This document shows, piece after piece, positions 3,112 through 23,356 of a stretch of DNA of 64,000 bases. Where the stretch lies: IMG/VR virus record IMGVR_UViG_3300011427_000001, positions 9,188 to 73,187 of that record; one strand, written 5' to 3'. The translations under genes and the position numbers were made by a program. The notes under the pieces are model-generated. The model saw only the letters and a program-made list of their open reading frames with translations, had not been told where the DNA came from and did not search any database. Position 1 is the stretch's first letter; each line of letters begins with the position of its first letter. Origin of the DNA: a virus (Duplodnaviria; Caudoviricetes).

Positions 3112-3469
3112 GTGCGAGTTGTTTCATGTGTTGCTTCACCTTCTCTGGACTACGAGCAAGCAAACGACTGGCACGTTCAAGTGAGCAACCTGCTTCCTTC
3201 AACCGCACCAGTATCTTGTCATGCCGTGGAATCCAAATGTGTCGGTCCATGCAAGGCGCGTCGACCTGCTCAATGGTGCATTTGTGCACACCCGAGAATA
3301 TTGAATCAACTCTACTGATTACCTCGAAGCGTCGCACCTCCAACACCTGCGCAATTCGATCTATGTCCATGCCAACCATGAACACCCACCACATCCAATC
3401 AAGGTCGCATTGTCGCCGCCACTGGTCAGAAGAAGCCTCGAGGGCTAGCAGGCTTTCGGTGTCCATCAT
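3104..3469 (-). CDS. HTH/Myb-like DNA-binding protein
   Basis: Two HTH-like segments, including WIPRHDKIL...ASRLLARSPEKV. Confidence 0.5.
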   Translation of the reverse strand: MMDTESLLALEASSDQWRRQCDLDWMWWVFMVGMDIDRIAQVLEVRRFEVISRVDSIFSGVHKCTIEQVDAPCMDRHIWIPRHDKILVRLKEAGCSLERASRLLARSPEKVKQHMKQLAHG

Positions 3470-4304
3470 TTATTTTCCTCCAAGGCATGCGTTCACGAAT
3501 CGACTTCATCCCCAACGCGTCAGTCACGCGCTTCCACCCATCATCGTCAAGCTCATCAGGAGACCAGTGCATAGGTGCGACACCCGCAAATGGCAGCTCC
3601 ACGAGACGTCGGTTGCGCTTCACAATGTCCCAGCCGTTCTGAATGGCTTGATACTTCTTGGACATCGCTGGCAGCTCGCCCCGCACGTACTTCAACGCCG
3701 TTGTCGTGCCTACCCCGCGGATGCCCGGCACCTCATCAGTCTTGCAACCCGCAATCGCAATCACCTTGGCCCAGAGCCGAGGTTGAATACCATAGTCCTT
3801 CACAAAACCCTGCAGCGAACGAATCTTGCCCTTGTTCGGATTGTAGATTGTGACCGACCCTGAAAGCAACTGGTAGAGGTCTTTGTCCGAGGACACGACC
3901 ACGGCCTCGTCGTCCGGCCCCAAGGCTTTGACCAGTGCTGCAATGAGGTCGTCACTCTCGTACCCCGCCTGATGGAACACGTTGCGAAAGCCCATGTCGA
4001 ACAGGTACTGCTCCCGCAAGCTGTCAATCTGTCGATGCAGCTCGGCCCGGGCCTTGGTCTCCTCTTCAGTATGCTCCTCAGTATGCCGTCGCTTCTTGTA
4101 CTCGGGAAACAGAGCCTTGCGCTTGCTCTCGGTTGAATCAAAACAGAACGCCACTGCACCCGCGTCGTGGTCCGACTGCAGCATAGACAGGTCTTTCAGC
4201 ATGCCGTAGATGACACCAGTGGGAATATCTTCATGCGTCAAATGCCCCATGCTATGGAACGCACGCCACGCCAGGAAGTGCATGTCTAAAATCAAGTGCT
4301 TCAT
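3426..4304 (-). CDS. 5'-3' exonuclease / flap endonuclease (PolI N-terminal family)
   Basis: LILDM, YESDDLIA, SSDKDLYQL and the H3TH motif KTDEVPGIRGVG. Confidence 0.92.
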   Translation of the reverse strand: MKHLILDMHFLAWRAFHSMGHLTHEDIPTGVIYGMLKDLSMLQSDHDAGAVAFCFDSTESKRKALFPEYKKRRHTEEHTEEETKARAELHRQIDSLREQYLFDMGFRNVFHQAGYESDDLIAALVKALGPDDEAVVVSSDKDLYQLLSGSVTIYNPNKGKIRSLQGFVKDYGIQPRLWAKVIAIAGCKTDEVPGIRGVGTTTALKYVRGELPAMSKKYQAIQNGWDIVKRNRRLVELPFAGVAPMHWSPDELDDDGWKRVTDALGMKSIRERMPWRKINDGHRKPASPRGFF

Positions 4305-4690
4305 CCGGAGAAGCCAAACCCAGCACCTCGAGGCGGCTGAATTGGTGCCCGCGCTTTGACCTCTTCAGCCGTACGCTTGAAACAATGGGCCAACCATTCG
4401 TAGTCCTGATGCCACTTCAGAGCTTTGTCCAAGCAATCGAGCTCGTACTGCGTCCAACGTCTACCGGACCGCTCAGTTGAAATCACAATGGAGGTATCTT
4501 CACCTCGATACTTACCAAGCACTTTCCAAATCTTGGTGTAGACCGCATGGTAGCTTCGGCCTGTCTCCTCGCAGTGCTGTCGCAGCGATTTCTGACCATC
4601 GAACACCCTGCACATCATTTCATGTGCTTCATGCGTAGTAAACAGCACACCTGCCCGCTTGTGGGTCTTGTCTTTGACACCTTTAGGCAT
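4301..4690 (-). CDS. HTH/Myb-like DNA-binding protein
   Basis: WTQYELDCL...LAHCFKRTAEEVK; C-terminal RGAGFGF tail. Confidence 0.55.
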   Translation of the reverse strand: MPKGVKDKTHKRAGVLFTTHEAHEMMCRVFDGQKSLRQHCEETGRSYHAVYTKIWKVLGKYRGEDTSIVISTERSGRRWTQYELDCLDKALKWHQDYEWLAHCFKRTAEEVKARAPIQPPRGAGFGFSG

Positions 4691-4871
4691 TTCGAGGTTT
4701 CTTGCGGTTCACTCGCAGCACCTGCGAAACATGAATCTCATTGCGACGCCCCAATTCGTAGATGAGGACATGCTCTTTGGTCGCACGGGTACTGGTGATA
4801 AGACCCACCCGCGGCATGTCCTTGTCGTCCATGTAAACCACAAGGTCATTGCGCTTGAAGACTGAGCTCAT
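4683..4871 (-). CDS. small hypothetical protein
   Basis: Start MSSVFK at 4871 overlaps the RecA stop (ATGA). Confidence 0.6.
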   Translation of the reverse strand: MSSVFKRNDLVVYMDDKDMPRVGLITSTRATKEHVLIYELGRRNEIHVSQVLRVNRKKPRNA

Positions 4872-5986
4872 GCGTATCGAGGTTTGCGATCCAGTTCGCA
4901 CGCTGCCTCAATCTCGGTCCACACGCCGTGCATCGCCGCCTTGAGGTCTTCCTGCAGATTGTTCTCTTCAACGTGCTTGATGATTTGGTTGCGCGTGCCC
5001 TCGAAGTCCAGCTCCCGGGCATCGTAGCTGCTTGACTCCTCCTCGCTCTTCTTCTTCTTGACCGGCTTCCACGCCTTGTGGTCAATCATGAAGTCAACAT
5101 TGGCTCCCACGTCGTCAATCCCAAAGCTGTGATAGATGGGAATTTCGACCGTGCGGTCCTTGCCTGTGATGCGATTCTTCTTCACTCGGGCCTCGACAAT
5201 GACACCCACAATCTTGGTCTCACCTTTCACCGTGCGCTTCAACCGTTCCTTGACCGACGTCCAGATTTCAAGCGTGGCATAGAAGCGCAGCGACTTGCCC
5301 CCGCTACGAGTCTTCTTGTCCATCCCCATGCCCAGGTTGTCACGGGTCTGACCGATGATGATGAGAATGCTGCCCGTGTCGCGAAGGCCAATGAGCACGC
5401 GGCGGATGTTCTCGGAATGGGCCTTTGCTTTGCCATCCCCGTAACTCCCAGCCGTGTCCTTACCCTTCTCGTAGGCTTCCTTGCGCTCCGCAAACTTCTC
5501 GTCGGACGCGTCACTGGTAAGTGAATCCTGACTGTCCAGCACATAGATGAACGGACGGGCCAACCGCTTGGCGCGCTTGATGGCATTGTCCACGTGGAAG
5601 TAGAAACTCTCCACCGTGGAACTGTACACCGGCTCCCCTTTCTCGTCATAGCTGGGAGCCCGGATACGTGCCGCCATCTTCGAACCAAAGTAACGCTCCA
5701 AGTCCATCAACGCACCGTCTTCCACGTTGTCGTGATAGAACTCGTAGTCCTCGAAATCTGGATTGATGCTGGCCTCTGCCGCACACGTCAGCGAGAGCCA
5801 CGTCTTGCCGCTTGTGCTGTCCCCCACGATGAAGACGTACTTGCCCTTGATGAGACCGCCTTCGGCCCTACCGCTGCAGGCAAGGTCCAGCGCAGTGCTT
5901 CCCGTGGACAAGCAGTCGGAAGCTTTGATACCGGGTTGTACCGTCTTTCGCTTCAACTGCTTCTTGATGTCTTCAGTCTCGCTCAT
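4868..5986 (-). CDS. recA: RecA/UvsX-like recombinase
   Basis: STGSTALDLA, Walker A GDSTSGKT, VLDS, GGKSLRFYA, KNR motifs. Confidence 0.93.
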   Translation of the reverse strand: MSETEDIKKQLKRKTVQPGIKASDCLSTGSTALDLACSGRAEGGLIKGKYVFIVGDSTSGKTWLSLTCAAEASINPDFEDYEFYHDNVEDGALMDLERYFGSKMAARIRAPSYDEKGEPVYSSTVESFYFHVDNAIKRAKRLARPFIYVLDSQDSLTSDASDEKFAERKEAYEKGKDTAGSYGDGKAKAHSENIRRVLIGLRDTGSILIIIGQTRDNLGMGMDKKTRSGGKSLRFYATLEIWTSVKERLKRTVKGETKIVGVIVEARVKKNRITGKDRTVEIPIYHSFGIDDVGANVDFMIDHKAWKPVKKKKSEEESSSYDARELDFEGTRNQIIKHVEENNLQEDLKAAMHGVWTEIEAACELDRKPRYA

Positions 5987-5995
5987 AAAAATGTA

Positions 5996-6056: not shown

Positions 6057-7283
6057 TCAGTCCCAATCATCCTTCGCCTTCCCAGCCGGCTCGCGTTCCT
6101 CGCGGCCACCCCCACGACGGTCATCGTCGCGGGAACCCCGGCGCTCTTCCCGAGCCGCAGGCTCACGCTCGCGGGTGCCCCGTTCAGCGGCCGGAGCACG
6201 CTCTTCCCGCGACCCACGCCGGCGGTCGTCATCCTTCGGCTTGTCGTCTTTGTTGCTGGGTGGAGGGTCACGGTCAGCATCAAACTCCTCCTTCGGCTTC
6301 TCGTCACGGGACCCACGCCGGTCATCATCACGTTGCGACCCGCGACGGTCTTCGCTCTCACGAGAACCACCCCGGGGACTGTCATCCCGTGACCGGGAAT
6401 CCGTTCTCGAGGCCGGCTCGCGTTCCTCGCGGCCACCCCCACGACGGTCATCGTCGCGAGCCGGTGCCCGATCATCATCACGGGAACTACGACGGTCGTC
6501 GTCACGACCACCCCGGTCACGGTCCGGAGCACGCTCTTCCCGGTCACGTGCAGGCGGACGGTCGTCGTCACGCTTGCGACTGGCAGGCTCCTGGAAGAAG
6601 AGCTCCTTCAGCTTGTCGTAGCTCTCGGTGATGAGCATGGCGTCGAGGTCAAAACCCTCGTCCATGATTTTGTCACCGTACGGCTCACGAGTCTTGAAGT
6701 CGATGGTCTCCGCTTCGTACCATGTGCGCTTGCCCTGCTTGACCTCCGTGAAGCCAACCTTGAGCGTGAAACCCTTGGCCAAGTGATAGAAGAGATGGTA
6801 GTTGTCCCCTTCGTCTTGGTCGCGAATGCGAGCGTCCAGCAGTTTGCCAAACAGGTGGTAACTGTAGTCCCACGGCTGGACCAGCTTGTCCCGAGTATCG
6901 AGATCGACAACCTGGAACAATTGGCGCTCCTTGGGGTACAGGGCCTTGATGAGCTTCTCGTCTGCGCCGTCGTCGCTCTTCAGCTTCTTCTGGAACTCGC
7001 ACACGGGGCACGGCAGACCGAACGTGCGGTTGGGACACACCATTGTGTCGTTGTTGGGACCGATGTCCCGATGCACGAAAATGGTGCGCTCGTAGTGCAG
7101 CTGACCGGCGTCAGCGTGCGGGTTACCCTTCAACGCCACAAAGGGAATGAAGTCCAGCCGGTACACCCCCTCCTTGTCGACCTTGAAGGGCTTCACTCCC
7201 TTCGGCATCTTGAGATACTTGCTGTCGAAGCTATCATGCTCGTCGGCCCGTTTGCGGGCGTCAGAGTAACTGTAATTACCCAT
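6057..7283 (-). CDS. single-stranded DNA-binding protein, T4 gp32-like, with long Arg/Asp-rich tail
   Basis: H...C...CPVC zinc-site pattern; lies between UvsY-like and recA; acidic/aromatic end DDWD. Confidence 0.75.
   Translation of the reverse strand: MGNYSYSDARKRADEHDSFDSKYLKMPKGVKPFKVDKEGVYRLDFIPFVALKGNPHADAGQLHYERTIFVHRDIGPNNDTMVCPNRTFGLPCPVCEFQKKLKSDDGADEKLIKALYPKERQLFQVVDLDTRDKLVQPWDYSYHLFGKLLDARIRDQDEGDNYHLFYHLAKGFTLKVGFTEVKQGKRTWYEAETIDFKTREPYGDKIMDEGFDLDAMLITESYDKLKELFFQEPASRKRDDDRPPARDREERAPDRDRGGRDDDRRSSRDDDRAPARDDDRRGGGREEREPASRTDSRSRDDSPRGGSRESEDRRGSQRDDDRRGSRDEKPKEEFDADRDPPPSNKDDKPKDDDRRRGSREERAPAAERGTREREPAAREERRGSRDDDRRGGGREEREPAGKAKDDWD
6085..6458. repeat. 47-bp perfect direct repeat (6085-6131 and 6412-6458) in the SSB tail
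   Basis: Both copies read gccggctcgcgttcctcgcggccacccccacgacggtcatcgtcgcg, encoding RDDDRRGGGREEREPA. Confidence 0.95.
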
Positions 7284-7951: not shown

Positions 7952-8872
7952 TTATCGGCGGTCTTTCAGCACGGCGTAGCACGCCAGCACAAGCCCCGCC
8001 CGACCTGAGTCATAGAAGTTTTGTTTGAACACGTCCATCAGGAAGAAGGCGCGTTCGTTGCTACTGTTGAGTAGAATGCTGCTCGCGTATCCCAGCACCA
8101 AGCGGCGGATGGCCTCCGGCTCCTCATCGCAGGTCTTGATCAGCGCCGCCACTTCCGACCACGGCGTCTTGGGATTCATCAGCAGCCGTGCAATCTGAAT
8201 TGCCGCGGCCCGATGGTCGTTGTCCTCAATGGACTTCATCTGCTCCGCTGGGTCCTTGATTGACAGGATAGCGTTGAGCAGCACCAGCGCCTTGCGCGCA
8301 CTGGACTCCGAGTGCTCGACAATCTTGGTACATACTTCCTTCGAAAGGTCAAAGCGCACGAGGTCCGCAATGTCTTCCACCACGGCCTGCAGCGCCGCTG
8401 GCTTCATCGCCTTCAACCGAATCTCCGTGCAACGGGTGTTGATAGTGGGCAGCACTTTGACCGGGTCGGTCGTTGCCAGCATGAAGTAAACGTGCTTCGG
8501 GGTATCTTCCAGCATCTTGAGCAGCATGTTCTGCGCATCCTTGGTCAGCTGGTGACACTCGTCGATGAGATAGATGCGCACCTTGCCGCCTATTGGATGC
8601 AGATGCATGCGCTGCGCAATCTCGCGCACCGTGTCGATGCCCCGGAAGTTGGCTGCATTCTTCTCATCAAAGTCCTGGTCGCTGCACTCCAGCTCCTTCT
8701 GCAGGATGCGAGCCAACGTGGTCTTACCCACCCCGCTGGGACCCGTAAAGAGCATCGCATGCGGCATGGAGCCTTCATTCAAAAAGCCCTGCAGGATTTT
8801 GACCGCCTCATCCTGTCCGATGACATGCTTGAATGAAGTGGGTCGGTATTCTTTGTATAGTTCGTCGCTCAT
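7952..8872 (-). CDS. AAA+ clamp-loader subunit, DnaX gamma-like
   Basis: LYKEYRPTSF..VIGQ, GPSGVGKTT, IDECHQL, LLKMLE, TRC arginine finger; no zinc module or tau C-terminal domains. Confidence 0.9.
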   Translation of the reverse strand: MSDELYKEYRPTSFKHVIGQDEAVKILQGFLNEGSMPHAMLFTGPSGVGKTTLARILQKELECSDQDFDEKNAANFRGIDTVREIAQRMHLHPIGGKVRIYLIDECHQLTKDAQNMLLKMLEDTPKHVYFMLATTDPVKVLPTINTRCTEIRLKAMKPAALQAVVEDIADLVRFDLSKEVCTKIVEHSESSARKALVLLNAILSIKDPAEQMKSIEDNDHRAAAIQIARLLMNPKTPWSEVAALIKTCDEEPEAIRRLVLGYASSILLNSSNERAFFLMDVFKQNFYDSGRAGLVLACYAVLKDRR

Positions 8873-10380
8873 GATGGTTTCATGTTATGTTCTAGCATCT
8901 CGAGAAACTGCTCCACGTCTTCCGTGTTCACCTTGTCGTCCTTGCCCTTGGGGGTGAAGCCGAACTCAATCCCATCCCACTTAAATGGGTACTTGTGAAA
9001 CCAGGTACCGGTGGGAGGACAGATCTCATCTTCAACTTCAAGCGGACAAATGATCCACTTGAACGCCTTGCGGAGGTCTTCGTTGACCACCTGGTGCACC
9101 AAATCGAGATACTGCTTCAGTTCCTTGATGTAAACGTCACCCAGCATGCTGTCATGAACTTGCATCACCACACGTGACTTCATCTTGTGTTTGCGCAGCA
9201 ACTTATTCAGACGAGTGAGCGTCCACAGCAAGCAATGAAAGGCGCTGCCCTGCACCGGGTAGTTGATAACCTGATTGCGCCGGAACGCCCCTTCAATCCG
9301 GAAACCAGTCAACGTATCAAACCCACCTTCCTCAAGGTAGTCCTCATACCACTTCTTCTTCCACGCACTGTAGACCTTGAATCGATTGTTCCAAAAGTCA
9401 TCTTCAACCTCTTGGATGTGCTTCTCGAAAGTACCATCAAGTGGACCTCCCTTGGCTTTGGGGTCACACGCCCCCAGCTCAAAGATACCATTTGCGCGCA
9501 AATGCTCCCGCAAAGGACGGCCATCGGGACCCAACAGCTTCGCACGTTCCATCCACTCCCACAAGTCAGGGGCGCATTGCTTGTAATAGCTGCCGTAGAA
9601 CTCAGGAAACACAAACCTGTTCTTGCCACCGTAGCGATGGTTCTTGCCATACTTCTTCACCCACTCGTTCTTCAAGAAGTAAATCTGAGCTGACATGTCC
9701 CCGTGCATATCCTTGGTCGGGTCAGTCAAGTAACTAATCATGACCGGGTCTCGATGGTAGCACGTTGCAATTGAAACCTCCGCACCCTTGAAGTCATTCT
9801 CAACCAGAACGTAGTTCTGATCGGTTGCAATGAAATTGGTGCGCAGCAACTCAGCCTGCATCGGGTCACGCACTGGCACATTCTGGAAGTCCGATGACGA
9901 CCGATACGTCACCGTGGTATGCAAATCGTAATTCGGATGGAACCTCCCATTGACCAAGGTACGCTTGATGCGTTTTAGATATGTACCATGCGCCTTGTTC
10001 AGCTGAGATAGGATTTGATAGCCACGCAAGAAGTGCAGATCGATCTTTTCCAATGCACCTATCTCGACCGAAGGCTGTCCCTCCCCCTCTTCATCGCCGG
10101 TCCACTGCGTCACAGGGAACTTCATCTCACCGTACAGCACATCCCGCAACTGGTCATCGGAGTGCAAATTGGCCTTGGTGCCGAACCGCCGCTGCCAAAT
10201 CTCCCACACCTCATCCTGACGCAGCTTGTCCTCAATCCGACGCATGCGCTCCTTGGCCATCTCCGTGGTCGCATCCAACCGTCTCTCGTCAACCCTGATA
10301 CCAGTTGCCTCGATCTCAGCCAAGGCAATCATACCCTCGTGCAACAGCTGGTATCCTTTGTGTGTGTTAGGTCGTTCCAT
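8869..10380 (-). CDS. polA: family A DNA polymerase, polymerase-domain subunit
   Basis: Motif A ENDFKGAE, motif B GKNRFVFPEFYG, NYPVQGSA, motif C QVHDS. Confidence 0.92.
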   Translation of the reverse strand: MERPNTHKGYQLLHEGMIALAEIEATGIRVDERRLDATTEMAKERMRRIEDKLRQDEVWEIWQRRFGTKANLHSDDQLRDVLYGEMKFPVTQWTGDEEGEGQPSVEIGALEKIDLHFLRGYQILSQLNKAHGTYLKRIKRTLVNGRFHPNYDLHTTVTYRSSSDFQNVPVRDPMQAELLRTNFIATDQNYVLVENDFKGAEVSIATCYHRDPVMISYLTDPTKDMHGDMSAQIYFLKNEWVKKYGKNHRYGGKNRFVFPEFYGSYYKQCAPDLWEWMERAKLLGPDGRPLREHLRANGIFELGACDPKAKGGPLDGTFEKHIQEVEDDFWNNRFKVYSAWKKKWYEDYLEEGGFDTLTGFRIEGAFRRNQVINYPVQGSAFHCLLWTLTRLNKLLRKHKMKSRVVMQVHDSMLGDVYIKELKQYLDLVHQVVNEDLRKAFKWIICPLEVEDEICPPTGTWFHKYPFKWDGIEFGFTPKGKDDKVNTEDVEQFLEMLEHNMKPS

Positions 10381-11617
10381 GCAGGCTTGATTCGTTTACG
10401 TACCAAGTTGGCAACGGGTCTATCCTTAGCTTCGCCATTTGCTTCTCAGCCAGCAAATATTCAAGCAGCGTGTCAGTACCACAGTAAAGCAACAGCTGAC
10501 GAAGCTCCACTTCCTCTCGCACCCGGTTCAATACGCTACCGGCTTGGCTTTCGAGGAACTGCTTGATATGCTCATCGTACGCCTCAGCCCCCAGGTGAGC
10601 AAACGCCTGAAACTTCAACCCGCAAATGCCTTTTCGATTGTCAATCACGTGTGCTGCCAGCATGGTATCCCACAACCAATTCTGCACCGGACGCCCTGAC
10701 ACCTTGCGCGTCCACCGTTCTTCGTGTTTGAGGTTCGACGCAATGTGGTAGCAGCGTTCGGAATGCAGCAGGTCGAACGTGGCTTCAATCGCCGCTCCGT
10801 GCCAAGGGTACGCAATGGTCTTGCGTCCCCGCCAACAGGCCGAAGCACACACAATCTCACCACCCGGGGTCTCGGGCTTCAGACAGTTGTTTTCATAGTC
10901 GAACGCAATCGCCCCTCCTTTCTGTTCCATCTTGCGCAGCACTGCAGCCGCTTCGTCCGTGTCAAGCAGCACTTCAATCTGCGACTCGTAGTCTGGGACC
11001 TGTTCCCACGGTACCTCGCGATAGCTGCAGGCCTTCTCGAGATGTCGCACGAAGTCCCGGTCCATGACCTTGCTGTGCATTCGCATTAGATAGGACGGAT
11101 GGTACGTGGGGCTGATCCACACATTGGGTTTCTGGCATGGGATGTTCCAGCCAACCCAGCGAGTAATGGCACCCGGTGCCTCCTTCCAGACGTGGCCTAT
11201 CAAACTCTGCACGGGAGTGCCACCCAACAGCACAATCGAAGCGGGCTGCAACCGCTCAATCGTCGTGATCAAATTGGGGCGACAGTAGTCCACGGCCCGC
11301 TTGTCCGAAATCTTGTTGTCGGGTGGACGACAAATGAGAGCGTTCGTAGTCCAGCAGTCTTTCCTCAGGTCAATCCCAATGTGATCAAGTGCGTCTTCGA
11401 GGTAGCGACCCGCCTTGTCTACAAACTGAATGCCTTCATCGTCTTCATTCGCTCCCGGCGCTTCGCCCACGATTAAGATCCGTTTGCGACCTTCGCCGCT
11501 TGGTCGCATCTTCGGTGTCTTGCACCCCTTGTAAAGACCGCACGCCCCACACTTGGGCAATAGGCTTGCCGGTGCTTTGGTGTCCAGCAGCTCACTCCCA
11601 GCAAAAAATCCTCTCAC
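10367..11617 (-). CDS. family A DNA polymerase N-terminal subunit: family-4 UDG-like domain plus 3'-5' exonuclease
   Basis: CGACGL..GC, VGEAPG, TNALICRP, YHPSY (UDG-F4); then AFDYE, ASNLKHE, DTMLAAH, YCGTD (DnaQ-like exonuclease). Confidence 0.88.
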   Translation of the reverse strand: MRGFFAGSELLDTKAPASLLPKCGACGLYKGCKTPKMRPSGEGRKRILIVGEAPGANEDDEGIQFVDKAGRYLEDALDHIGIDLRKDCWTTNALICRPPDNKISDKRAVDYCRPNLITTIERLQPASIVLLGGTPVQSLIGHVWKEAPGAITRWVGWNIPCQKPNVWISPTYHPSYLMRMHSKVMDRDFVRHLEKACSYREVPWEQVPDYESQIEVLLDTDEAAAVLRKMEQKGGAIAFDYENNCLKPETPGGEIVCASACWRGRKTIAYPWHGAAIEATFDLLHSERCYHIASNLKHEERWTRKVSGRPVQNWLWDTMLAAHVIDNRKGICGLKFQAFAHLGAEAYDEHIKQFLESQAGSVLNRVREEVELRQLLLYCGTDTLLEYLLAEKQMAKLRIDPLPTWYVNESSLHGTT

Positions 11618-11620: not shown

Positions 11621-12685
11621 TCAATCCCCTTTGACCTTTTCCTTCAGCGTCTTGCTCGTCTTGCTTTCGTCCGGCGCGGTCAAGCACGTCATGTAAACCC
11701 ACTTGCCCCCATCAACCCGCAAGCGTCCCTTGGCAATCTCCGCTTCATTGTGCTTCTCGGTCAGCTCAGTCAGCAGTTTGGGAGCAATGAGAAACTCCAT
11801 CGGCGGACCACTGTATTTGAGGTCCTTGACCTCGCGGAAGCGTCCACAGGCCCCTTCGCCCGTAATGCGCAGCATTCCACCCCGGTCCGGTCGCAACTGC
11901 ACCGTGACCACGTTGTCCTCACTGTTCTCCGCGCTGAATACTTCAGCCAAGTCGGTCGCTTCCTTCAACCCCTTGGGCAGCGTAATCGGTTCGCCTTTGA
12001 AATCCAACAGGGAATCGATGTTATGGTATTCCACCATATACCGACGGCAGGACAACACCAGGCCGTCCGCGTTGCGGAAATGAATCCACGTTTCGGTCTC
12101 GCAAAAGTCGGTCATCCCCAATGACGCAACGTGCTTGAGACTGTCCCGCCGCACCAGCATGGACGCCTTAACCCCGGTCTTCATTTTGACCCGCGTGGCT
12201 TGGAAATTGTCGCACGCCTCGATGAAGTCAGGATGCAGATGGATGCAGGTCAGCTTGAATTGGCTGGCATCCTTCGAAGCACAGTGCTGCACCAAACCCA
12301 CCCCTTCCAAGAAGTCTCCGTGCAACTCCACCCACTTGGTGGGCTTTTCCACTTTGTCGATGTGCAGCAGGATGTCGTTCTCGTGCCGGATCTCAGCACG
12401 TCGCCGCTTCCCAATCAACACGAAGTATCCGTCAGCCACCTCAACCTCGAGCTCGGTCTCGGGCATCTTGCGCAGCACGGACAGCAGTGGAGCCGCTTGC
12501 ACTGCCCCCTCAACCTTCAGCTCACATTCGTGGGTGCAAGCAATCTCATCGTTGAAAGTCATCACGGTCTGGTTCTGAAAGACAAAGCAGGAACTCTGCT
12601 CAATGATCTCTCGAGTGGACAGACCCGGTTGAACCGCTTCAAGTTGAAGCAGAAGTTTTTCCCTGTTTACGATTTGAATAGCCAT
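11621..12685 (-). CDS. sliding clamp, DNA polymerase III beta-like
   Basis: 354 aa with beta-clamp-like segments (MTFNDEIAC, LLSVLRKMP, IEACDNFQA); adjacent to the polymerase and clamp loader. Confidence 0.8.
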   Translation of the reverse strand: MAIQIVNREKLLLQLEAVQPGLSTREIIEQSSCFVFQNQTVMTFNDEIACTHECELKVEGAVQAAPLLSVLRKMPETELEVEVADGYFVLIGKRRRAEIRHENDILLHIDKVEKPTKWVELHGDFLEGVGLVQHCASKDASQFKLTCIHLHPDFIEACDNFQATRVKMKTGVKASMLVRRDSLKHVASLGMTDFCETETWIHFRNADGLVLSCRRYMVEYHNIDSLLDFKGEPITLPKGLKEATDLAEVFSAENSEDNVVTVQLRPDRGGMLRITGEGACGRFREVKDLKYSGPPMEFLIAPKLLTELTEKHNEAEIAKGRLRVDGGKWVYMTCLTAPDESKTSKTLKEKVKGD

Positions 12686-12690: not shown

Positions 12691-13167
12691 TTAGATGTGC
12701 TTCCAGGTCTGCCGTAAGACAACTGAAGATATTGTTGACGAACTCACATTGTATTGTCGTGCGAGCCGATACTGTGTCCCGCGAATACCCTTAGAAACCT
12801 GCGCTCGAATATGCAAAACAGCTTCTGACGTTAATGTGTGATTCCCCGAATCATCTCCTACGGGATGACGTGCTCGGTTCTTCTTTATGGCATCCCTCAC
12901 GTTATCTCTAGGAGAACCCACGAACAAATGTCGCGGATTCACGCACGACGGATTGTCACATCGGTGTAAAGACCATTCGGATCTCAAAAGAGGCCTTCCT
13001 AATTTCAACTCAAGTGAAAAACGATGTGCCAAGATATGATTACCCAAACCACGCCTAGGCGCTAGGCGCCCATAGCCTTTCATGTCCTTAGAACCTAGCC
13101 ACAACCAACACTCATCCAATCGGCCCTTTCGCACCTTATTCCAGAAACGCACCAGTACCGGTTTCAT
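12691..13167 (-). mobile_element. free-standing HNH homing endonuclease
   Basis: RFWNKV..CWLW.G..GYG, AHR, HRCDNPSCVNPRHL; AT-richer than its neighbours. Confidence 0.88.
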
Positions 13168-13385
13168 TTTTCTTTTGGGCGTGGACGGTAGTTGAGAATT
13201 GGACCGGGTTGCGCCTTACCCCTATTTATCAGCGACTGCTGATGCACCGCAAAACGACGCATGGTATCCCGCACTCGGCGCTGATAGATATCGTGGAAGG
13301 TAAGCATGATTGACAGCTCGTGCTGGTGCATCAACGCCTCCGGCACCACGTCTCTGCTTGAGTTGCCGCTGTAGTAGATTACCAT
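13164..13385 (-). CDS. 73-aa protein, possible detached N-terminal piece of DpdA
   Basis: MVIYYSG...IMLTF resembles the N-terminal strands of DpdA-like TIM barrels; starts 1 nt after the dpdA stop. Confidence 0.55.
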   Translation of the reverse strand: MVIYYSGNSSRDVVPEALMHQHELSIMLTFHDIYQRRVRDTMRRFAVHQQSLINRGKAQPGPILNYRPRPKEK

Positions 13386-13386: not shown

Positions 13387-14310
13387 TTATTCGTTGAACC
13401 CGAATCCTTCGCCCCGGGTCTGGCGCATGAACGGCCAAGGCCATTGGGGCAAGCTGTCCGACATGGCCATGAAGTATCTCAAATTTGCTTCCGCTCTAGG
13501 CTTATGGTGTGTGAGCACTCCGCGTTCCACCTCGACACCGCTACCATCGTACCTACCAAGCGCGATCCCATGCAGGGACAGCCACGCAAGCATAATTTCC
13601 CGTTCCTTTGACGATACGGTGGTGATATGCTTGCCCTGCTCCTTCATGTTTGGGGACTTCCCGCTCATCGTAATTGAGTAGGGCTTCTCGTCGAAAACGA
13701 ACTTCCCGCCGCGCTGATGGGGGACGTAGACCGTACCAAAAGCCGCAGCCTTAATCCAGCTGGCGCTGTCCACACTCCACCACGGGTACCTCCGCATGAG
13801 GTCCCAGCTCGTCATCGCAAACCCATGCGTCTTGACGACGGGGAACTTGTCGTTGCTGGCTGGACAGATGAGATGGAACACGCGGTCGGCCCAGCCGTAG
13901 TATTCGTCCTTCGTTACCTCCTGTCCCAGTCCACCAATTCCGAGAAAGTCATAACCCCGCTCAAGGTAGTGGGTAATCCATTTGAGGGGAGTGCCAAAGT
14001 GGATAACGGGGACCGGACGCAGACCGTGTTCCCTTTCGAGATACTGCTGAACTTTCCACGTGACCTCTGGGTTAAAGATAGCGTCGACGTTGGCGTAAAA
14101 GTCCATCGCCCAACCGAAGCGTTTGATAAAACCAGCGTAGCTGTCACAGTAGGCATAGAATTCATCAGTCTCGTAGAACTTGTAACCGTTTCGCCCCTTG
14201 AGATCTATCACCTCTCGCGTGTAGATACTGTGCGCTCCGCTATCGAGAAAGAAACTACCCACTGCGGTGGGGATGTTCTCCAGAGGATGCGGTTCTTTGA
14301 GCTTGGTCAT
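13387..14310 (-). CDS. dpdA: DpdA, 7-deazaguanine DNA transglycosylase (TGT-like)
   Basis: FLDSGA, NVD, PVIHFG, GIGG, HGF, DSASW motifs; located in the que gene cluster. Confidence 0.85.
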   Translation of the reverse strand: MTKLKEPHPLENIPTAVGSFFLDSGAHSIYTREVIDLKGRNGYKFYETDEFYAYCDSYAGFIKRFGWAMDFYANVDAIFNPEVTWKVQQYLEREHGLRPVPVIHFGTPLKWITHYLERGYDFLGIGGLGQEVTKDEYYGWADRVFHLICPASNDKFPVVKTHGFAMTSWDLMRRYPWWSVDSASWIKAAAFGTVYVPHQRGGKFVFDEKPYSITMSGKSPNMKEQGKHITTVSSKEREIMLAWLSLHGIALGRYDGSGVEVERGVLTHHKPRAEANLRYFMAMSDSLPQWPWPFMRQTRGEGFGFNE

Positions 14311-15452
14311 ATCTGCGCGTGCCAGATGTTTACTTCATTGTCTGGGTTGCGCAGCCCGCACACAATTTCAGCTTCAAGAACACGACCGGCATCACATTGC
14401 ATTGCAATTGACCTGAAACCAAGGCACCGACACTGCACCTTTTCACTGAGAAGACGCAACACTGACCTCATGTCAAAAGCCTGATACATGTTCTGCGCCG
14501 GCAGTATTTCCGGAAAGCTCCGGAAGTGGGGATACACCAGGTTACACCCCGCAATGCACGCCTCCAACAGCGTCCACGAAACGTAGTCTTGCAAGGAGCA
14601 GTTGAATTGAATGGCCGCAGTGGCAAGCTCATTGTAATACTGCTCCTTCGTGAGACCCGAAAGCAGTTTGAACCGCGGCTCGTCTTGTGCGAACTCGACA
14701 ATCTCCTTCAGCGTCTCGGGTTCGTTCGAGCGGAAGTCAGCTGCACTGGTCGTCACACACCAAGTCCAGTCCTTGTACCTCAGCAAGAACAAACGAGCCA
14801 CTTCAAGCATGAACCTTGGGTTCTTCTCTCGATCCAGCCTCGAGGTAAAAACTACCTTCCGTTCACGCTGCGACAGCATGGCCGGCATCTGTGCTTCCAC
14901 CGCACTGACTGAAATGGGTAAGCCCACCACATGGATAGGACATTCAAAGCCGGCAACGCGCAACTGGTCACGATGAATAGTGCTACCAACAAAGACCGCA
15001 GTGTGCACTCGGGACAAGCCCACTTCCATGGGACGCATCCAATGGCGCATGCCCCACGTGAAGTCGTATTCATCCACGCTCTGCGCATGCAGCATCGAGT
15101 AGATCTTCACTCCGGTCAGCCCGTACAAGTGCAGCGCATACGGCACAGCCTCAAACCCCGGTGTCCAGAAGTCCTGCAGAAAAATGGCATCGTCGTTGCT
15201 GACCGACCCGCTCCGGATCTCACGCATGAAATTCTCAACCTGTCGACAAGCATACATCCCACGACCAGTGGCATCCAGCACCGCCCCCACCGTAATCTGC
15301 GCCTCCACCTGACAGCCTTCAATCTTAACAAACAGCGTCGAAGGAGAGACCGCTGCCACTGCTTTGGGAAACCAGTCTTCGCAGAGCTGCTTCGTATATC
15401 GTGCAGCCAGCGGTTCAAGTCCAAAATAGAACAGTCTTCGAATGGGCTTCAT
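14307..15452 (-). CDS. GT-B glycosyltransferase (GT4-like)
   Basis: Start reassigned to MKPIRRLFYFGLE (TAATG overlap); VFTSRLDREKNP and EACIAGC...FPE donor-binding region. Confidence 0.8.
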   Translation of the reverse strand: MKPIRRLFYFGLEPLAARYTKQLCEDWFPKAVAAVSPSTLFVKIEGCQVEAQITVGAVLDATGRGMYACRQVENFMREIRSGSVSNDDAIFLQDFWTPGFEAVPYALHLYGLTGVKIYSMLHAQSVDEYDFTWGMRHWMRPMEVGLSRVHTAVFVGSTIHRDQLRVAGFECPIHVVGLPISVSAVEAQMPAMLSQRERKVVFTSRLDREKNPRFMLEVARLFLLRYKDWTWCVTTSAADFRSNEPETLKEIVEFAQDEPRFKLLSGLTKEQYYNELATAAIQFNCSLQDYVSWTLLEACIAGCNLVYPHFRSFPEILPAQNMYQAFDMRSVLRLLSEKVQCRCLGFRSIAMQCDAGRVLEAEIVCGLRNPDNEVNIWHAQI

Positions 15453-16216
15453 TAATAGAATAGTCCGCGACGCTTCGGACACGCGGATTCGTGCACAAAG
15501 ATCCGGTCGCGCATGCGGGACAGAACCACAGTTGGATCTTCCAGTGGGGCTAGGTCTGTCGTGTATGCCAGGTACCCACGGGCGCGCAGCAACGTCCAAA
15601 TGTCTGCAGGAGTGTCACTGTACCTCTTGAGGAACTCTGGTACCTGCTCAAGCACAATGACCGGACGACTGTCCGCGAGAATGCGCTGAGCCCCTTTCAG
15701 CACTTTGAGTTCGTACCCCTCAACGTCTATCTTGAGTACGTCAACCAGGGTGTTAAGACGAACACAGTCGTCAAGGCGCTCAAGCGGGACCAAGGTACCC
15801 ATCGTCCCTTTGCCCACATGTCCACCCAGATGGGCTGTAGGCGTTGACACAATCCGAATTTCGCTCTGCTCGGCCCCCAACGCACAATTCTCGGACTTCA
15901 CGTTCGATACTTTGTTGTCAGCCAAGTTCCGCACCAGAAGCGCATAGATGTTCGGGTCGGCCTCGAATGATTGCACCTGTCTGGCCCACCCCGAGAAAGT
16001 CAGAGCGGTCTGTCCTACGTTGGCACCTACGTCCAACACCAAACCCGCACCCGGCTTCAAACGCTTGAGCGAGGCCAACGTCACCGCCCCATAGACCTTG
16101 GCGTAGGTGAGCAGTTTGGCCCGCTCATCCTGTTTTGGCATCCAGTACGTAAATCCCGAGCGCGCTTTGATCTGCTCAACCGGGAAGGGAACCTTGGGTG
16201 GGGTCTGCTCAGACAT
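15452..16216 (-). CDS. FkbM-family SAM methyltransferase
   Basis: LDVGANVG, FEADP, KIDVEGYELKVLKGA; start reassigned to MSEQTP. Confidence 0.88.
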   Translation of the reverse strand: MSEQTPPKVPFPVEQIKARSGFTYWMPKQDERAKLLTYAKVYGAVTLASLKRLKPGAGLVLDVGANVGQTALTFSGWARQVQSFEADPNIYALLVRNLADNKVSNVKSENCALGAEQSEIRIVSTPTAHLGGHVGKGTMGTLVPLERLDDCVRLNTLVDVLKIDVEGYELKVLKGAQRILADSRPVIVLEQVPEFLKRYSDTPADIWTLLRARGYLAYTTDLAPLEDPTVVLSRMRDRIFVHESACPKRRGLFY

Positions 16217-17048: not shown

Positions 17049-17914
17049 TCAGAAAGTTCAGCGTAGGCATCGTGGTAGTGTATGCTCTCCGCATTATCCA
17101 CGCGAACCGTAAAGTGCTTCACAGTTGGCATCTGCCGCAGTTGACAAGCCATGTCCCGCACCACGTCTTCCACGAACTTGGGATTATCGTATGCCCCCAT
17201 CGTCACCGCTCGCTCATCGGGACGCTTGAGCACCGGGTAGATCGGATGGGAGAAAGCACGCCAGGCCGCATGCACTAGCATCTCAAACCAGACTACCTTG
17301 TCCGGCTCGTGCTGCACTAAGACCGAAATCTTGCTGCGCTGGGCATGTGCTCCTTTGCCCATCCCGGTTGCAGCGTTGAAGTCACTTATCTCCCGCGAAC
17401 AGGGGCAGCACGTCTTCCCTTGAACCTCGACGCCAGTGTGCGTGACAAAGGCAAAACGATCTTCCGGCGTCCGCACACACTCAATCTGCAGGATACCTTT
17501 CAGCGGAGCTGTCCCCGCACACTTGGTAACCGGGGCCTCCTGCGACATGAAGTAATCGACCGTGACCTGCAGGAACACCCGACGGGTCTCCAGCTTCTCC
17601 GCCAACTGCAAAGCCACAGTCTGCAGATCAAGGCTACTGAAGGTGCCATCGGCCAGAATGTGTTGGTTGAGCACTTGAGTGAAACGACTCATGTGGGTGC
17701 CCTTCACTTCCGCACTGAGCGAACAGGCGAGCTCGAACTCACCCACCGTGTCAAGCACTGTCAACGCCGGTGTTTTGCCATCCACAGACGACGGGGCACG
17801 CAACACTCGGATGGGCAAACGGATGCCCGTCACCCCGACGCGTTTGATGAAGACATCGCGTGTGTCGAGTGTCCGTTGAATGTCCGGCAGTACGCTGACT
17901 GGTGTGTTGCTCAT
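17045..17914 (-). CDS. folE2: GTP cyclohydrolase I type B (FolE2)
   Basis: KGTHMSRF, TCCPCS, AHAQRS, NPKFVEDVVRD, ESIHYHDAYA. Confidence 0.93.
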   Translation of the reverse strand: MSNTPVSVLPDIQRTLDTRDVFIKRVGVTGIRLPIRVLRAPSSVDGKTPALTVLDTVGEFELACSLSAEVKGTHMSRFTQVLNQHILADGTFSSLDLQTVALQLAEKLETRRVFLQVTVDYFMSQEAPVTKCAGTAPLKGILQIECVRTPEDRFAFVTHTGVEVQGKTCCPCSREISDFNAATGMGKGAHAQRSKISVLVQHEPDKVVWFEMLVHAAWRAFSHPIYPVLKRPDERAVTMGAYDNPKFVEDVVRDMACQLRQMPTVKHFTVRVDNAESIHYHDAYAELSE

Positions 17915-18447
17915 GTGTGTCCTAGTATCTTACGAACGCGATGTTCTTTCTTATGACACTTTTGACAAAGTGTGATTCCGTTCGAGATATCAAAACGCAA
18001 TTCAGGATACTCAACCCAAGGTTTGATATGATGTGCATGTAAATGACCTCCCTTAGCAGGACATTTTTGGCATTTGTAACCGTCACGTTCCTTAACTGCC
18101 AAGGCCCACAATTTACCTTGGAATGATTCTCGATCCAACTGTGCACCCGGGTCCCTATCCTCTGGATAGTACCCGTATCTTTTCTTGTAGATCCTCCGAG
18201 CGGCTTCAACACCATGAATCTGAACCATCGTCTTTCCCTTACGTTGTAATGAAATCGCAGCCCGCCTTTCAGGTGTCATCGACTTCTTAACTGCTTTCGA
18301 AATTGATTGGCAGCGTTGCTCATGGGTTTTCTTCCAGTTTCTAGAAACACCCCTTGCCTGCTTCTTACGATATGAAGCACGTGACCAACGCTTCTTCGCA
18401 GCCGCCACCTGCTTCACACGAGTACTTTCAGGCGTACTCGACCTCAT
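17911..18447 (-). mobile_element. free-standing HNH endonuclease inserted between queE and folE2
   Basis: ERDGYKCQKC, HAHHIKP, NGITLCQKCH; basic N-terminal DNA-binding arm; AT-richer. Confidence 0.85.
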
Positions 18448-20688: not shown

Positions 20689-22095
20689 TTAGAAGCACGA
20701 CCGCACAGCGGGATTGCTCATGGCCAAGCATGCCGCAACCGCCACCGTATCGGTCTCAACGTACTCTCCTTCCCGCAGCACTACCCAATTCAACCGATAT
20801 ACCTCCAGCTTCTTCTCCGCGTCGTTTTGGTTGATGCCCAACAGCCCGGTCACGTGCGACAGCTTGCGCTTGTCTTCCGAGAAGTTCGTGCGTCTAATGA
20901 TCTCGGTCGTGAAGCTGTCGGTGTCAGACTGTGTCGCGGTCACGTACAGGACATGCCACTTCGAACTCAGCCCCCGCTGTTGTTTCCACGATGCGTTAAT
21001 GCGGTCGCGTGATGAGGTGGCAGTGGGGTCCGCTGCAGCCTCGTCGAGAATGTCAGCGTAGTCGACCACCACCACGTCAGGCACCCAGCCTTCGCGTGCC
21101 CAGATCTCGAGCTGGGCGTCAATACCTTTCACACTGAGCGTTGAGTTGGGATGTGCTACGAAGCGCAGGTACTCCTTGCCTCGAACCCGATATTGCGCGG
21201 TCTCCTGAAAAGCCAGCTTGGCGTCTCGAAAGCTAAGGGGTGCGTCGAACACTCGCTCTTCGTGCTTTACCTGCACTTCGTTTTCCACCCGCCGCATTTT
21301 GGTTGGGTAGAGCACCGTGTGCGGCCAGTGCTTCGCTTTGACTGGCCGACCAGCAGCCCGGGCCGCAAATCGTCGCAGCATCTGTCGTTCGCTCATGTCA
21401 CCTGCCGCAAACCAAGCTACCCGCCTGCGTTGCAGAATTGCTCGCCACCCGATGTCAATCAACCAAAAACTCTTGCCCCGCTTCTCGGGTGCCATGAACA
21501 CCACGAACGCGTCCCGGGTCAACTGATTGCGAAGCATTGACCCCAACGCCCCGGGGTAGGTTACAATGTCATCCACGTCATCTTCCAACGCTGCACGCAA
21601 TGCTTCGTCGTCTTCCAACACATTGACAACTGAACCAGTGCCCAGCTCGACCTTGCCAAACTTGTTGACCTCGGCGGTCGCGTCTTCAACCTTGCCAGTC
21701 TCCAACCCTTCAGTCACGGTCTCGACCAATCGTTGCAACCGCACGCGAGTGAAATGTTTCGCGGCCCGGTCTATCACGTAGCTGCTATTGATTTCCTTCC
21801 GCAGCGTTTCATATTCCCCACTCAAGCCACGCAGGAACTTCTCCACCAAGTCAACCGTGTCCTTGTCCTTGTTCGTTTGGGCCCACGCCTCAAACACACC
21901 CTCAATGTCCCCTTGGGGTGCTCGCTCGTGATTGACCAGATACCGGACGCACCAACCTCCCACAATGTTTGCCCAGCGGCTGCGAAACAGACCCTCCTGC
22001 CACTTCGGCGTGATGCGCGCAAGTGTGGTCGTATCCACAATCATTGCTGTCAGAATTGTGCGCTCTTCGTTGCCTTCAATGCGTTCAATTCTCAT
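20689..22095 (-). CDS. DnaB-like replicative helicase
   Basis: Walker A APEKRGKS, VVVDYAD, VTATQ, SEDKRK; helical N-terminal domain. Confidence 0.85.
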   Translation of the reverse strand: MRIERIEGNEERTILTAMIVDTTTLARITPKWQEGLFRSRWANIVGGWCVRYLVNHERAPQGDIEGVFEAWAQTNKDKDTVDLVEKFLRGLSGEYETLRKEINSSYVIDRAAKHFTRVRLQRLVETVTEGLETGKVEDATAEVNKFGKVELGTGSVVNVLEDDEALRAALEDDVDDIVTYPGALGSMLRNQLTRDAFVVFMAPEKRGKSFWLIDIGWRAILQRRRVAWFAAGDMSERQMLRRFAARAAGRPVKAKHWPHTVLYPTKMRRVENEVQVKHEERVFDAPLSFRDAKLAFQETAQYRVRGKEYLRFVAHPNSTLSVKGIDAQLEIWAREGWVPDVVVVDYADILDEAAADPTATSSRDRINASWKQQRGLSSKWHVLYVTATQSDTDSFTTEIIRRTNFSEDKRKLSHVTGLLGINQNDAEKKLEVYRLNWVVLREGEYVETDTVAVAACLAMSNPAVRSCF

Positions 22096-23356
22096 TGAGG
22101 CGTTTTAGGTAGTCTTCGAACTTGGGCATTGCAGCACGTCCCATTTTCAGGAAGTCGGGATGTCCTTCCCAGAAGGTGTAAGACTTGAGCGACCCGCTCC
22201 ATTCCTTCCAATCCCGGGTCTGTTGCTGCACCCGCCTGAACCATTCCTGCACGAAGGCCGGAGTGGAGCGCACCAACTCAACCATGGCATTACGAATGAT
22301 GTCGTGTTGCAGACGCTCAGATATACCGGTCGGCCGCTGCTCCTCCCATTTGAAATACCTCTTCCGAAAAGCAGCGTGTGCATCGAAGCTGGTGCGAATG
22401 GCCTGCTTCAACTCAGCATCCGTGCACGCCCATTTCACTTCACGCAAACGGTCAAAGACGAGCTGCTCAGGTTCTGTGAGTTGAATCTGTTCTACCTTCC
22501 CGTTTACGGCTTTGGCCATTCTGTCCACTGAGCTTTGGGCCATCCTTGCTTCTATCTTAGTGAACTTGTCCCGAAAGTCTTCGGCTGAATGAACCTGTGG
22601 CATCATCTCTTGCTTCCAGTGCAAGGTGTACCAAACCAAAACAGTTCGCAAACGCTCTTTGTTCCCGTCCACCATATCTAATGTTTCCTGCATGAAACGC
22701 TGCCATCTTGTACGACTTGGAGCTCGTGTTAGCCTTCTAGCTTGTCTGATGTGAGTCTCGAGCTCGTGACATGCTCTTTGAACGAATGTGGGTTTTTCTA
22801 TCCCCCCAAAGAAACCCCCGTGCACTTTTTTCTCACCCTCTCCGTTACGACGGGAGGGAGTAACTGTGTTATTCTCTTCTCCTATTATTCTCCTATTAAG
22901 TATCTTGACGGTTTCGCCAAGATTATCTTCTCGTTTTCGAGAAGCAATCTTCTCGTTTTCGTCAAGATGGAGGGAGCTCCCTATTGTACCCTTCGCCCTT
23001 AAAGACGACAAGTAACGAGCGAAATGTTCCTCTAGTAGGCGATAGTACTTCTTCTGTGGAATACCCATGCACCTAGTGTTGACCCAACCGAAGATCTCCC
23101 ATTTTTTCATCACTGTTCGAAAGGCATACAGGGACAGACCCACCGGCTCGCAAAATAGCTTGGGTTGAATGAAAATCTTATCCTGTCCTTCTGCTTTGAA
23201 CTTCTCCCAAAGATAAAGGAATCGACGTATGATAACGGCCTCCTCGATAGAAGAGCCACGAGCTAAGTCATTGTCATAAACCGTGACGTTGCGTTCATTG
23301 TTTGCCTTCCAAACATCATACGGTATCTGTTCCACATTGGGTTGCTCGATTTTCAT
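22085..23356 (-). CDS. replication initiator-like protein (N-terminal winged HTH)
   Basis: wHTH-like N-terminus (VGLS...RTVMKKW..FGWV...KKYYRL); lies between primase and helicase; internal DNA repeats. Confidence 0.55.
   Translation of the reverse strand: MKIEQPNVEQIPYDVWKANNERNVTVYDNDLARGSSIEEAVIIRRFLYLWEKFKAEGQDKIFIQPKLFCEPVGLSLYAFRTVMKKWEIFGWVNTRCMGIPQKKYYRLLEEHFARYLSSLRAKGTIGSSLHLDENEKIASRKREDNLGETVKILNRRIIGEENNTVTPSRRNGEGEKKVHGGFFGGIEKPTFVQRACHELETHIRQARRLTRAPSRTRWQRFMQETLDMVDGNKERLRTVLVWYTLHWKQEMMPQVHSAEDFRDKFTKIEARMAQSSVDRMAKAVNGKVEQIQLTEPEQLVFDRLREVKWACTDAELKQAIRTSFDAHAAFRKRYFKWEEQRPTGISERLQHDIIRNAMVELVRSTPAFVQEWFRRVQQQTRDWKEWSGSLKSYTFWEGHPDFLKMGRAAMPKFEDYLKRLNEN
22877..22968. repeat. 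iteron-like repeat cluster (candidate replication origin)
   Basis: ttctcctatta x2 in tandem (22877-22898); atcttctcgttttcg x2 (22925-22939, 22947-22961); inverted pair atcttgacg/cgtcaagat (22902-22910, 22960-22968). Confidence 0.6.

Follow-up and report, generated by a model that had tools for sequence, protein, structure and literature searches.

Why should a nuclease, a polymerase subunit, a DNA guanine transglycosylase and a methyltransferase, all encoded in one phage gene module, carry the same short Gly/aromatic peptide at one of their ends? The question is raised by a stretch of 64,000 nucleotides (hereafter the window, that is the whole stretch analysed) of the IMG/VR virus record IMGVR_UViG_3300011427_000001. 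There the peptide is found on five terminal carriers, in a genome that also contains a sliding-clamp gene, and the carriers recur in related genomes. We read the peptide as a docking tag for the phage's own beta clamp, which would bring DNA-modification enzymes to the clamp. On the basis of sequence comparison and structural modelling, we give this reading a probability of about two in three.

The terminal motif in the window

The initial annotation had listed six instances of the motif. All six were found in place when the sequence and its open reading frames (ORFs) were checked, and genes and motifs alike lie on the minus strand. The 5'-3' exonuclease/flap endonuclease (FEN; 3426-4304; Pfam 5_3_exonuc_N, E 2.5e-28) ends P-RGFF, with the codons of RGFF (3429-3440) directly before the stop. 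Just upstream of FEN, a 129-residue Myb/SANT-like protein (4301-4690) ends R-G-A-GFGF-S-G (tail 4304-4330, GFGF 4310-4321). The N-subunit of the DNA polymerase (10367-11617), which joins a family-4 uracil-DNA glycosylase (UDG)-like domain to a 3'-5' exonuclease (Pfam UDG, E 2.4e-23, and DNA_pol_A_exo1), opens with M-RGFF (11603-11614). The DpdA-type DNA guanine transglycosylase (13387-14310; phrog_887, E 3.1e-36) ends R-G-E-GFGF-N-E (tail 13390-13416, GFGF 13396-13407). The FkbM-family methyltransferase (15452-16216; Pfam Methyltransf_21, E 2.3e-18), whose called gene has 254 codons rather than the 293 of the longest ORF, ends K-R-RGLFY (15455-15475, RGLFY 15455-15469). The sixth instance is internal, a GGFF (22808-22819) in the linker of a 423-residue replication-protein-like protein (22085-23356) encoded between the primase and the DnaB-like helicase.

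A six-frame translation contains RGFF in two places only, the termini of FEN and the polymerase subunit, and GFGF in three, two of which are the termini of the 129-residue protein and DpdA. The terminal enrichment that had been put forward for checking was borne out. Precisely, five of the 11 occurrences of GFF, GFG-Phi or GLF (Phi, a hydrophobic residue) in the 73-kb genome lie at most 10 residues from a protein end (binomial P ~0.001), and none of 400 shuffles reached five terminal occurrences. The motif was defined post hoc, after the data had been seen; more weight therefore falls on whether relatives conserve it, and they do.

The motif was originally written RG(x)F(G)F. The core G-Phi-(G)-Phi stands, but Arg is not a required residue, as K, R or Q can precede the Gly. 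The motif lies 0-3 residues from the C-terminus or 1-8 residues from the N-terminus, beyond a basic linker of variable length and sequence. The same core is present on at least five unrelated folds, at either the N- or the C-terminus. Its carriers are exclusively enzymes acting on a DNA template, and the other early proteins are without it; the motif is also missing from the glycosyltransferase (ORF 14307-15599).

The motif in related phages

Two scans of IMG/VR with the clamp sequence gave 85 loci (29-60% clamp identity) whose flanks cover the module; overall, the comparison took in more than 100 related phages, among them the 9g-group phages of E. coli. Among GenBank phages, megablast of the 19-kb region found no close cultured relative and tblastn with the clamp found no match. 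The clamps of cultured phages are too divergent for BLAST, so they were found only via DpdA matches and phrog_947.

The polymerase N-subunit starts with a GTG codon 3 nt past the stop of the clamp gene, and a ribosome-binding site (GGGGA) lies 7 nt before this codon; all the orthologues support this start. G-[FLM]-[FY] is present in 52 of the 55 distinct N-termini of orthologues from the IMG/VR loci, and x-F-F or x-F-Y stands near the start of all 55, compared with 27 of 1378 other N-termini. Between one and six residues precede the motif. The motif is retained where the N and C subunits of the polymerase are fused (loci L004 and L005), hence it does not serve subunit assembly. The catalytic subunit of this family A polymerase (8869-10380, minus strand; Pfam DNA_pol_A, E 1.4e-32) is itself without the motif.

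We assigned DpdA from its match to phage DpdA/tRNA-guanine transglycosylase (TGT) profiles and from its neighbourhood of preQ0-pathway genes, the enzyme activity being predicted. A tblastn search with it against GenBank phages gave matches to annotated DpdA/TGT genes, in 181 phage records. G-Phi-(G)-Phi was found in the last 10 residues of 88 of 120 gene-called DpdA homologues (42-79% identity), against a background of 2.3% of internal windows and 1.9% of other C-termini, and in 67 of these 88 tails a basic residue precedes the Gly. In the IMG/VR loci, an aromatic pair lies in the last six residues of 24 of 36 distinct DpdA tails and of 160 of 1078 other ORFs (P 9e-12), and the strict motif in 19 of the 36 and nine of the 1078 (Fisher P ~1e-24). 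An unbiased scan of C-terminal tripeptides also placed FGL (27 times), KGF (21 times) and GFG (15 times) among the most enriched. The tail can be aligned in 22 orthologues; the linker that leads from the conserved W-P-W-P-F region to the motif differs among them in both length and sequence.

The cultured loci were obtained from the DpdA search of GenBank phages, followed by inspection of the annotated neighbourhoods. The order dpdA, clamp, polymerase was found in JenK1 (a relative of 9g), Seurat, PaMx25, PBPA162 (Iggyvirus), the Vibrio phages VspDsh_1 and 2.117.O, a Stenotrophomonas phage, Rhizobium phage RHEph06, BcepGomr, Streptococcus phage Dp-1 and Edwardsiella phage vB_EpM_ZHS, and dpdA directly adjoins the clamp gene in most of the lineages examined. 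In these phages DpdA ends in Q-D-L-F-D-E (JenK1), M-E-L-F (Seurat), Q-E-L-F (PaMx25 and PBPA162), Q-G-L-F (VspDsh_1), Q-R-L-F (RHEph06), Q-M-E-L-F (the Stenotrophomonas phage), Q-R-R-L-F (Dp-1) or Q-S-L-W (vB_EpM_ZHS). The bacterial clamp-binding consensus is QL(S/D)LF (PMC9690074), and by sequence these tails appear canonical or nearly so. A near-canonical Q-x-x-L-F at the same position of DpdA, beside a clamp gene, supports clamp docking. The DpdA of an IMG/VR relative (locus L119) ends Q-G-F-F, which bridges the Q-x-x-L-F and the Gly-Phe forms. At the other client, the polymerases of the cultured relatives begin with G-[FLM]-F-W within 11 residues, or with S-F-F in vB_EpM_ZHS. The latter, a cultured phage of 71 kb (OM621816.1), is the nearest cultured model that we found, and shares the order of the module: helicase, primase, preQ0 genes, dpdA, beta-like clamp, a fused polymerase of UDG type, loader and RecA-like gene.

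Tail and clamp also occur together. The tail is present in all 12 cultured DpdA phages with a clamp, whereas its hydrophobic pair is missing from all four DpdA phages whose records nowhere match phrog_947 (Typha, Finch, PenguinLover67 and Bacteroides phage BS162P1), which corresponds to a Fisher P of ~5e-4, computed by hand. Typha-like loci of IMG/VR have neither clamp nor tail. IMG/VR searches seeded with the DpdA of JenK1 or Typha gave close relatives only (17 and three loci), and the contingency test stays small.

The sole phage homologue of FkbM (P0122, 39% identity) has RGFGF four residues from its end and is encoded on a related contig (L123) that also contains the clamp, DpdA and a polymerase starting M-P-K-GFW; among cellular FkbM homologues the pattern is present in only three of 118. 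The 129-residue protein, which has no Pfam or PHROG match, aligns with syntenic Myb/SANT-like proteins of 144 residues that end GFGVG (L002) and GFGIL (L019), and in its homologues of L066 (20246-20869) and L043 (18768-19313) GFF or GLF is N-terminal instead. This switch of termini among homologues is the behaviour of a portable short linear motif. We also considered the 129-residue protein as a dUTPase, whose motif V its tail resembles, and rejected this assignment, as there is no Pfam or PHROG dUTPase match and the protein aligns with Myb-like proteins. A DUF1643-like (UDG-superfamily-like) protein of L045 (14043-14567) starts M-P-GFF. Separately, a Cys-rich protein of 221 residues encoded directly after the clamp gene in L034 (6579-7244) ends GFGL. 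For FEN, about half of the nearest homologues have the motif, and in the IMG/VR loci the strict form is present in five of 22 homologues, compared with nine of 1078 other ORFs. Many FEN homologues without it (P0248-P0279) end instead in a common R-D-R-M-P-F-G with three or four basic residues after it, perhaps a different tail for docking or for binding DNA.

The clamp, its predicted complex with the DpdA tail and the surrounding module

The initial annotation took clamp and loader to be the phage's own, which a DnaN fold, a DnaN profile match and an adjoining AAA+ loader gene confirmed. The proposed receptor of the motif is a protein of 354 residues (11621-12685, minus strand). A Pfam search, which included the DnaN models, gave no match for it, but it matches phrog_947, 'DNA polymerase processivity factor' (E 1.3e-25), and a profile built from nine clamp homologues finds the B. 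subtilis DnaN chain 4tr6 (E 5e-16) and at least 30 other DnaN chains. Its AlphaFold model, built with the nine homologues, has a predicted local distance difference test (pLDDT) value of 87.7 and a predicted template modelling score (pTM) of 0.82, and contains three beta-alpha-beta domains. The top full-length Foldseek matches of this model are exclusively bacterial DnaN proteins (E 7e-21 and weaker, template modelling (TM) score 0.63-0.70, 13-17% identity). With three tandem domains of clamp fold and a sequence-profile relation to DnaN, the protein is a divergent beta (DnaN-type) clamp. The loader subunit (7952-8872, minus strand; gamma/delta'-like; Pfam DNA_pol3_delta2, E 1.2e-30, and AAA) is encoded next to the polymerase, and a clamp-loader gene adjoins the polymerase in 62 related loci.

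Structure prediction of the clamp with the peptides, which had been suggested as a check, was run for the DpdA tail and gave weak support. Modelled together, the clamp dimer and DpdA residues 274-307 gave an ipSAE (interaction prediction score from aligned errors) of 0.34 (runs 0.34, 0.44 and 0.17). None of three controls rose above 0.00, the value obtained with an unrelated protein in place of the clamp. The ipSAE mark was attained by 58 of 80 solved complexes and by two of 110 mismatched pairs; at ipSAE values of 0.60 or lower it was attained by just seven of the 80 solved complexes and by both of the passing mismatches. Contacts agreed between runs to at least 55%, and the pLDDT of the partner was at least 38 (39-49). 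Complexes of clamps with peptides have already been solved, so part of this pass may be memory. The low partner pLDDT, together with the variable linker, suggests that the tail of DpdA is disordered.

The module to which these genes belong, a minus-strand set of replication and DNA-modification genes, spans 2.5-26 kb of the window. The source record, from an uncultured phage, is 73,187 bp long and has an exact direct repeat of 123 bp at both contig ends (the 5' end lies outside the window), hence it represents either a circular complete assembly or a terminally redundant genome, and is probably complete. The preQ0-pathway genes near dpdA code for FolE2, a QueE-like radical SAM enzyme and T-fold proteins, and the module further includes a UvsX/RecA-like protein (4868-5986, minus strand), a gp32-like single-stranded DNA-binding protein (SSB; 6057-7283, minus strand), a UvsY-like protein and a second helicase. 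Two HNH endonuclease genes, both on the minus strand, lie between the clamp gene and dpdA (12691-13167) and within the preQ0-pathway cluster (17911-18447), and are probably mobile insertions that break an otherwise conserved dpdA-clamp adjacency. An ORF of 73 codons (13164-13385, minus strand) begins 1 nt past the stop of dpdA; at least 10 related loci have a homologue of it separating dpdA from the clamp gene, and in L068 one is fused to the N-terminus of DpdA.

Other terminal peptides were observed in the same module. The UvsX/RecA-like protein and nearly all of its orthologues (L002-L084) end R-K-x-R-Y-[E/A/Q/D], a second conserved terminal peptide. The tails of the gp32-like SSBs are acidic-aromatic, D-D-W-D in the window and D-D-D-I-P-F in L015 and L084 (L002 was also compared), the latter being the tip of E. 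coli SSB. The helicase gp39 of JenK1 (22024-24027 of L102) also ends D-D-D-I-P-F, and the clamp ORF of L003 ends E-D-D-V-P-F.

Weighing the clamp-docking reading

We read [K/R/Q]-G-[F/L]-(G)-[F/L/I] as a variant of the beta-clamp-binding motif that lacks the Gln and is specific to this lineage, as the comparison of tails suggests. The spacing of F-F and F-G-L parallels that of the two classes of beta-clamp motifs, the pentapeptides in ...L-F and the hexapeptides in ...L-x-L. For the claim of clamp recruitment made by the initial annotation, the beta clamp with its loader speaks in favour, as does a portable terminal motif that the polymerase N-subunit, DpdA, phage FkbM and the Myb-like protein all keep; a general role for FEN is not claimed, and the copy in the initiator is doubtful. 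Conservation among orthologues, which had been named as a check, divides in the same way. It holds for the polymerase, for DpdA, in the FkbM homologue and in the Myb-like proteins, whereas in FEN it is patchy and in the initiator-like protein weak.

Several observations weigh against the clamp as receptor of these tails. The sole structural test of clamp docking is a weak pass, and the sample on which the co-occurrence of tail and clamp rests is small and phylogenetically clustered, three of its four negatives being actinophages. About a quarter of the DpdA homologues have no recognisable motif. The motif of FEN is limited to a sub-lineage (11 of 120 homologues), and FEN is therefore not claimed as a general clamp client. 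The internal copy of the 423-residue protein is poorly conserved: the linker contains GFL, GFV, GFF, MFF or SFF in most of 12 orthologues and none of these in three. This protein has no Pfam or PHROG match, its nearest Atlas clusters ('replication protein', Phage_rep_O and HTH_36) are a lead only, and its place in the client set is doubtful on sequence grounds. In addition, the bacterial consensus has a Gln and an aliphatic residue at position 2, both missing from the motif of the window, and R-G-x-G-F-G is similar to motif V at the C-terminus of dUTPases (such as gp48 of JenK1), so that the likeness between tails could be in part a convergent Gly/aromatic flexibility. The host clamp, finally, could conceivably be the receptor.

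This last point belongs to a wider alternative, in which the docking motif is real and binds another receptor, be it the host beta clamp, the gp32-like SSB, the DnaB-like helicase or the clamp loader. We regard it as unlikely, though worth keeping in mind. A host DnaN could accommodate the Q-x-x-L-F tails found in cultured relatives just as well, the further terminal tails of the module (acidic-aromatic on SSB, R-K-x-R-Y on the UvsX-like protein) suggest contacts with peptide hubs, and the modest outcome of the complex prediction leaves room for it. However, DpdA phages that have no clamp gene have no tail either, though every host has a beta clamp; dpdA sits beside the clamp gene in most lineages, and the unrelated protein put in place of the clamp scored nil. 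It is quite improbable, instead, that the tails act in cis, as Gly/aromatic lids over their own active sites or as basic, RG-type tails binding nucleic acids, with no common partner. The resemblance of R-G-x-G-F-G-F to the dUTPase motif V (R-G-x-x-G-F-G-S-T-G) and the basic residue that so often precedes the Gly of DpdA tails would fit such a role. A core shared by at least five unrelated folds at either terminus would not, nor would orthologous DpdAs that have Q-x-x-L-F in its place and no Gly-rich loop, nor its absence from 115 of the 118 cellular FkbM homologues and from the DpdAs of clamp-less phages.

The carriers are all early or middle proteins of the replication module, and bacterial degrons are usually terminal hydrophobic tags, hence a terminal signal for sorting or turnover of early proteins (a protease degron, a packaging or a localisation signal) was also considered. 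We find it very improbable, since only enzymes acting on DNA templates have the motif among the early proteins, its presence correlates with that of the clamp gene, and a degron on the N-terminus of an essential polymerase, kept in 55 of 55 orthologues, is implausible. That the motif has no function, and reflects chance, composition or common ancestry of gene ends, is hardly credible. In fact, its definition was post hoc, and the members of each family are related, so that counts within a family are not independent, but the tail is kept behind a linker of changing length and sequence, the motif has appeared independently on unrelated families and at both termini, the background is ~2%, the shuffles never match the observed count, and the conservation data already contradict this explanation.

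Under the preferred reading, docking of the tails on the phage clamp, the AAA+ loader (7952-8872) would place the DnaN-type clamp (11621-12685) on primer ends, and the two hydrophobic residues of the peptide would enter its partner-binding cleft. The clamp would then tether the split family A polymerase via its UDG/exonuclease subunit, FEN (in this sub-lineage), DpdA, FkbM and the small Myb-like DNA-binding protein, clients that could be bound in turn, or together on the two sites of the clamp dimer. The outcome would be insertion of 7-deazaguanine, and further hypermodification, on freshly replicated phage DNA. From sequence, modelling and analogy we infer that peptide and clamp touch, where on the clamp they do so and that modification is coupled to replication.

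A broader version of the same reading is tentative, and we hold it for rather doubtful. It proposes a clamp code of the phage, in which the Gln-less [K/R]-G-F-(G)-Phi would recruit replicase, FEN, DpdA, FkbM and the Myb-like protein to the clamp; base exchange, decoration and possibly late transcription would be gated by the clamps left on replicated DNA, and DpdA would be a clamp client across lineages, those of 9g/JenK1 and Seurat included. That the Myb-like client couples late transcription to the clamp, as gp33/gp55 of T4 and MuC of Mu do, is speculation by analogy.

The clamp-docking reading bears on how phage DpdA finds its substrate and on why it replaces some guanines of the phage DNA and leaves others. 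If it is true, the tail places DpdA on newly replicated DNA, much as DNMT1 is placed on PCNA, and this gives a simple reason why DpdA selects phage over host DNA. Gene order and terminal motifs recur in cultured phages of E. coli, Pseudomonas, Vibrio, Rhizobium, Streptococcus and Edwardsiella, which makes the idea directly testable. The beta-clamp motif would also be able to drift far, losing its Gln and gaining Gly-Phe, which is relevant to the prediction of clamp clients in viral genomes, and the Myb-like and DUF1643-like proteins are flagged as likely to be associated with the replisome.

Comparison with known systems

The arrangement resembles the bacterial clamp-binding motif (CBM) of Pol III alpha, Pol II, Pol IV, MutS, Hda and other proteins, in which a short peptide at an end or in a linker brings many DNA enzymes to one DnaN-type clamp. 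In both cases the peptide is terminal or in a linker, is shared by several partners of one clamp and has two C-terminal hydrophobic residues, adjacent or one residue apart. Unlike the CBM (QL[S/D]LF or QLxLxL), the motif described here has K, R or Q followed by Gly, in place of the Gln and the aliphatic second position, and its hydrophobic pair is mostly Phe; hence R-G-F-F, G-F-G-F and R-G-L-F-Y of the window do not match the consensus. The bacterial systems also differ in that here the clamp is phage-encoded, with the low identity to bacterial DnaN given above, and in that the clients include DNA base-modification enzymes, none of which, to our knowledge, is known to carry a CBM. Terminal placement, at the N-terminus included, has precedents in Hda and in MuC of phage Mu (PMC12867686).

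MuC, and likewise the clients of the gp45 clamp of T4/RB69 (the polymerase gp43, gp33 and gp55), use a terminal clamp-binding peptide to couple other processes, such as late transcription, to replication (PMC12867686). Several proteins of such a phage system share one terminal clamp peptide, as we propose for the phage of the window, and the Myb-like protein could act in a comparable way. However, the T4 clamp is a trimeric, PCNA-like ring with a different peptide, Mu relies on the host clamp, and in neither system has a modification enzyme been reported as a client.

Modification behind the fork is known from clients with a PCNA-interacting peptide (PIP) box: DNMT1 is tethered to PCNA, so that new DNA is modified, and human UNG2 has an N-terminal PIP box. 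An aromatic pair is the anchor of the PIP box and the putative anchor here, and an N-terminal F-F before a UDG-fold domain, as in UNG2, resembles the polymerase N-subunit described here. The PIP box is Qxx[I/L]xxFF (PMC9690074). With its variants (Q-x-x-[I/L/M]-x-x-[F/Y]-[F/Y]), it shares only the aromatic pair with the present motif, the upstream part being absent, as the few residues before the motif of the polymerase show, and its clamp is the eukaryotic/archaeal PCNA, whereas the clamp of the window is DnaN-type.

Similar gene modules are those of Queuovirinae type with DpdA (9g/JenK1, Seurat, CAjan, PaMx25 and iggy), with which the window shares the order of 7-deazaguanine synthesis genes, dpdA, clamp and family A polymerase, a hydrophobic C-terminal tail on DpdA and an N-terminal G-Phi-F on the polymerase. 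A full-text literature search returned no paper linking DpdA to a sliding clamp: the words clamp and processivity are absent from three key papers on phage DpdA, and the searched papers on phages of Queuovirinae type mention no clamp. Those modules differ from the window in that their DpdA is less than 35% identical, its tail is Q-x-x-L-F instead of K/R-G-F-G-L, and the polymerase is a single chain without the UDG-like domain. Specific to the window are a beta-type phage clamp, a Gln-less Gly-Phe motif, its N-terminal position on a UDG/exonuclease polymerase subunit and a wide putative set of clients that includes FkbM.

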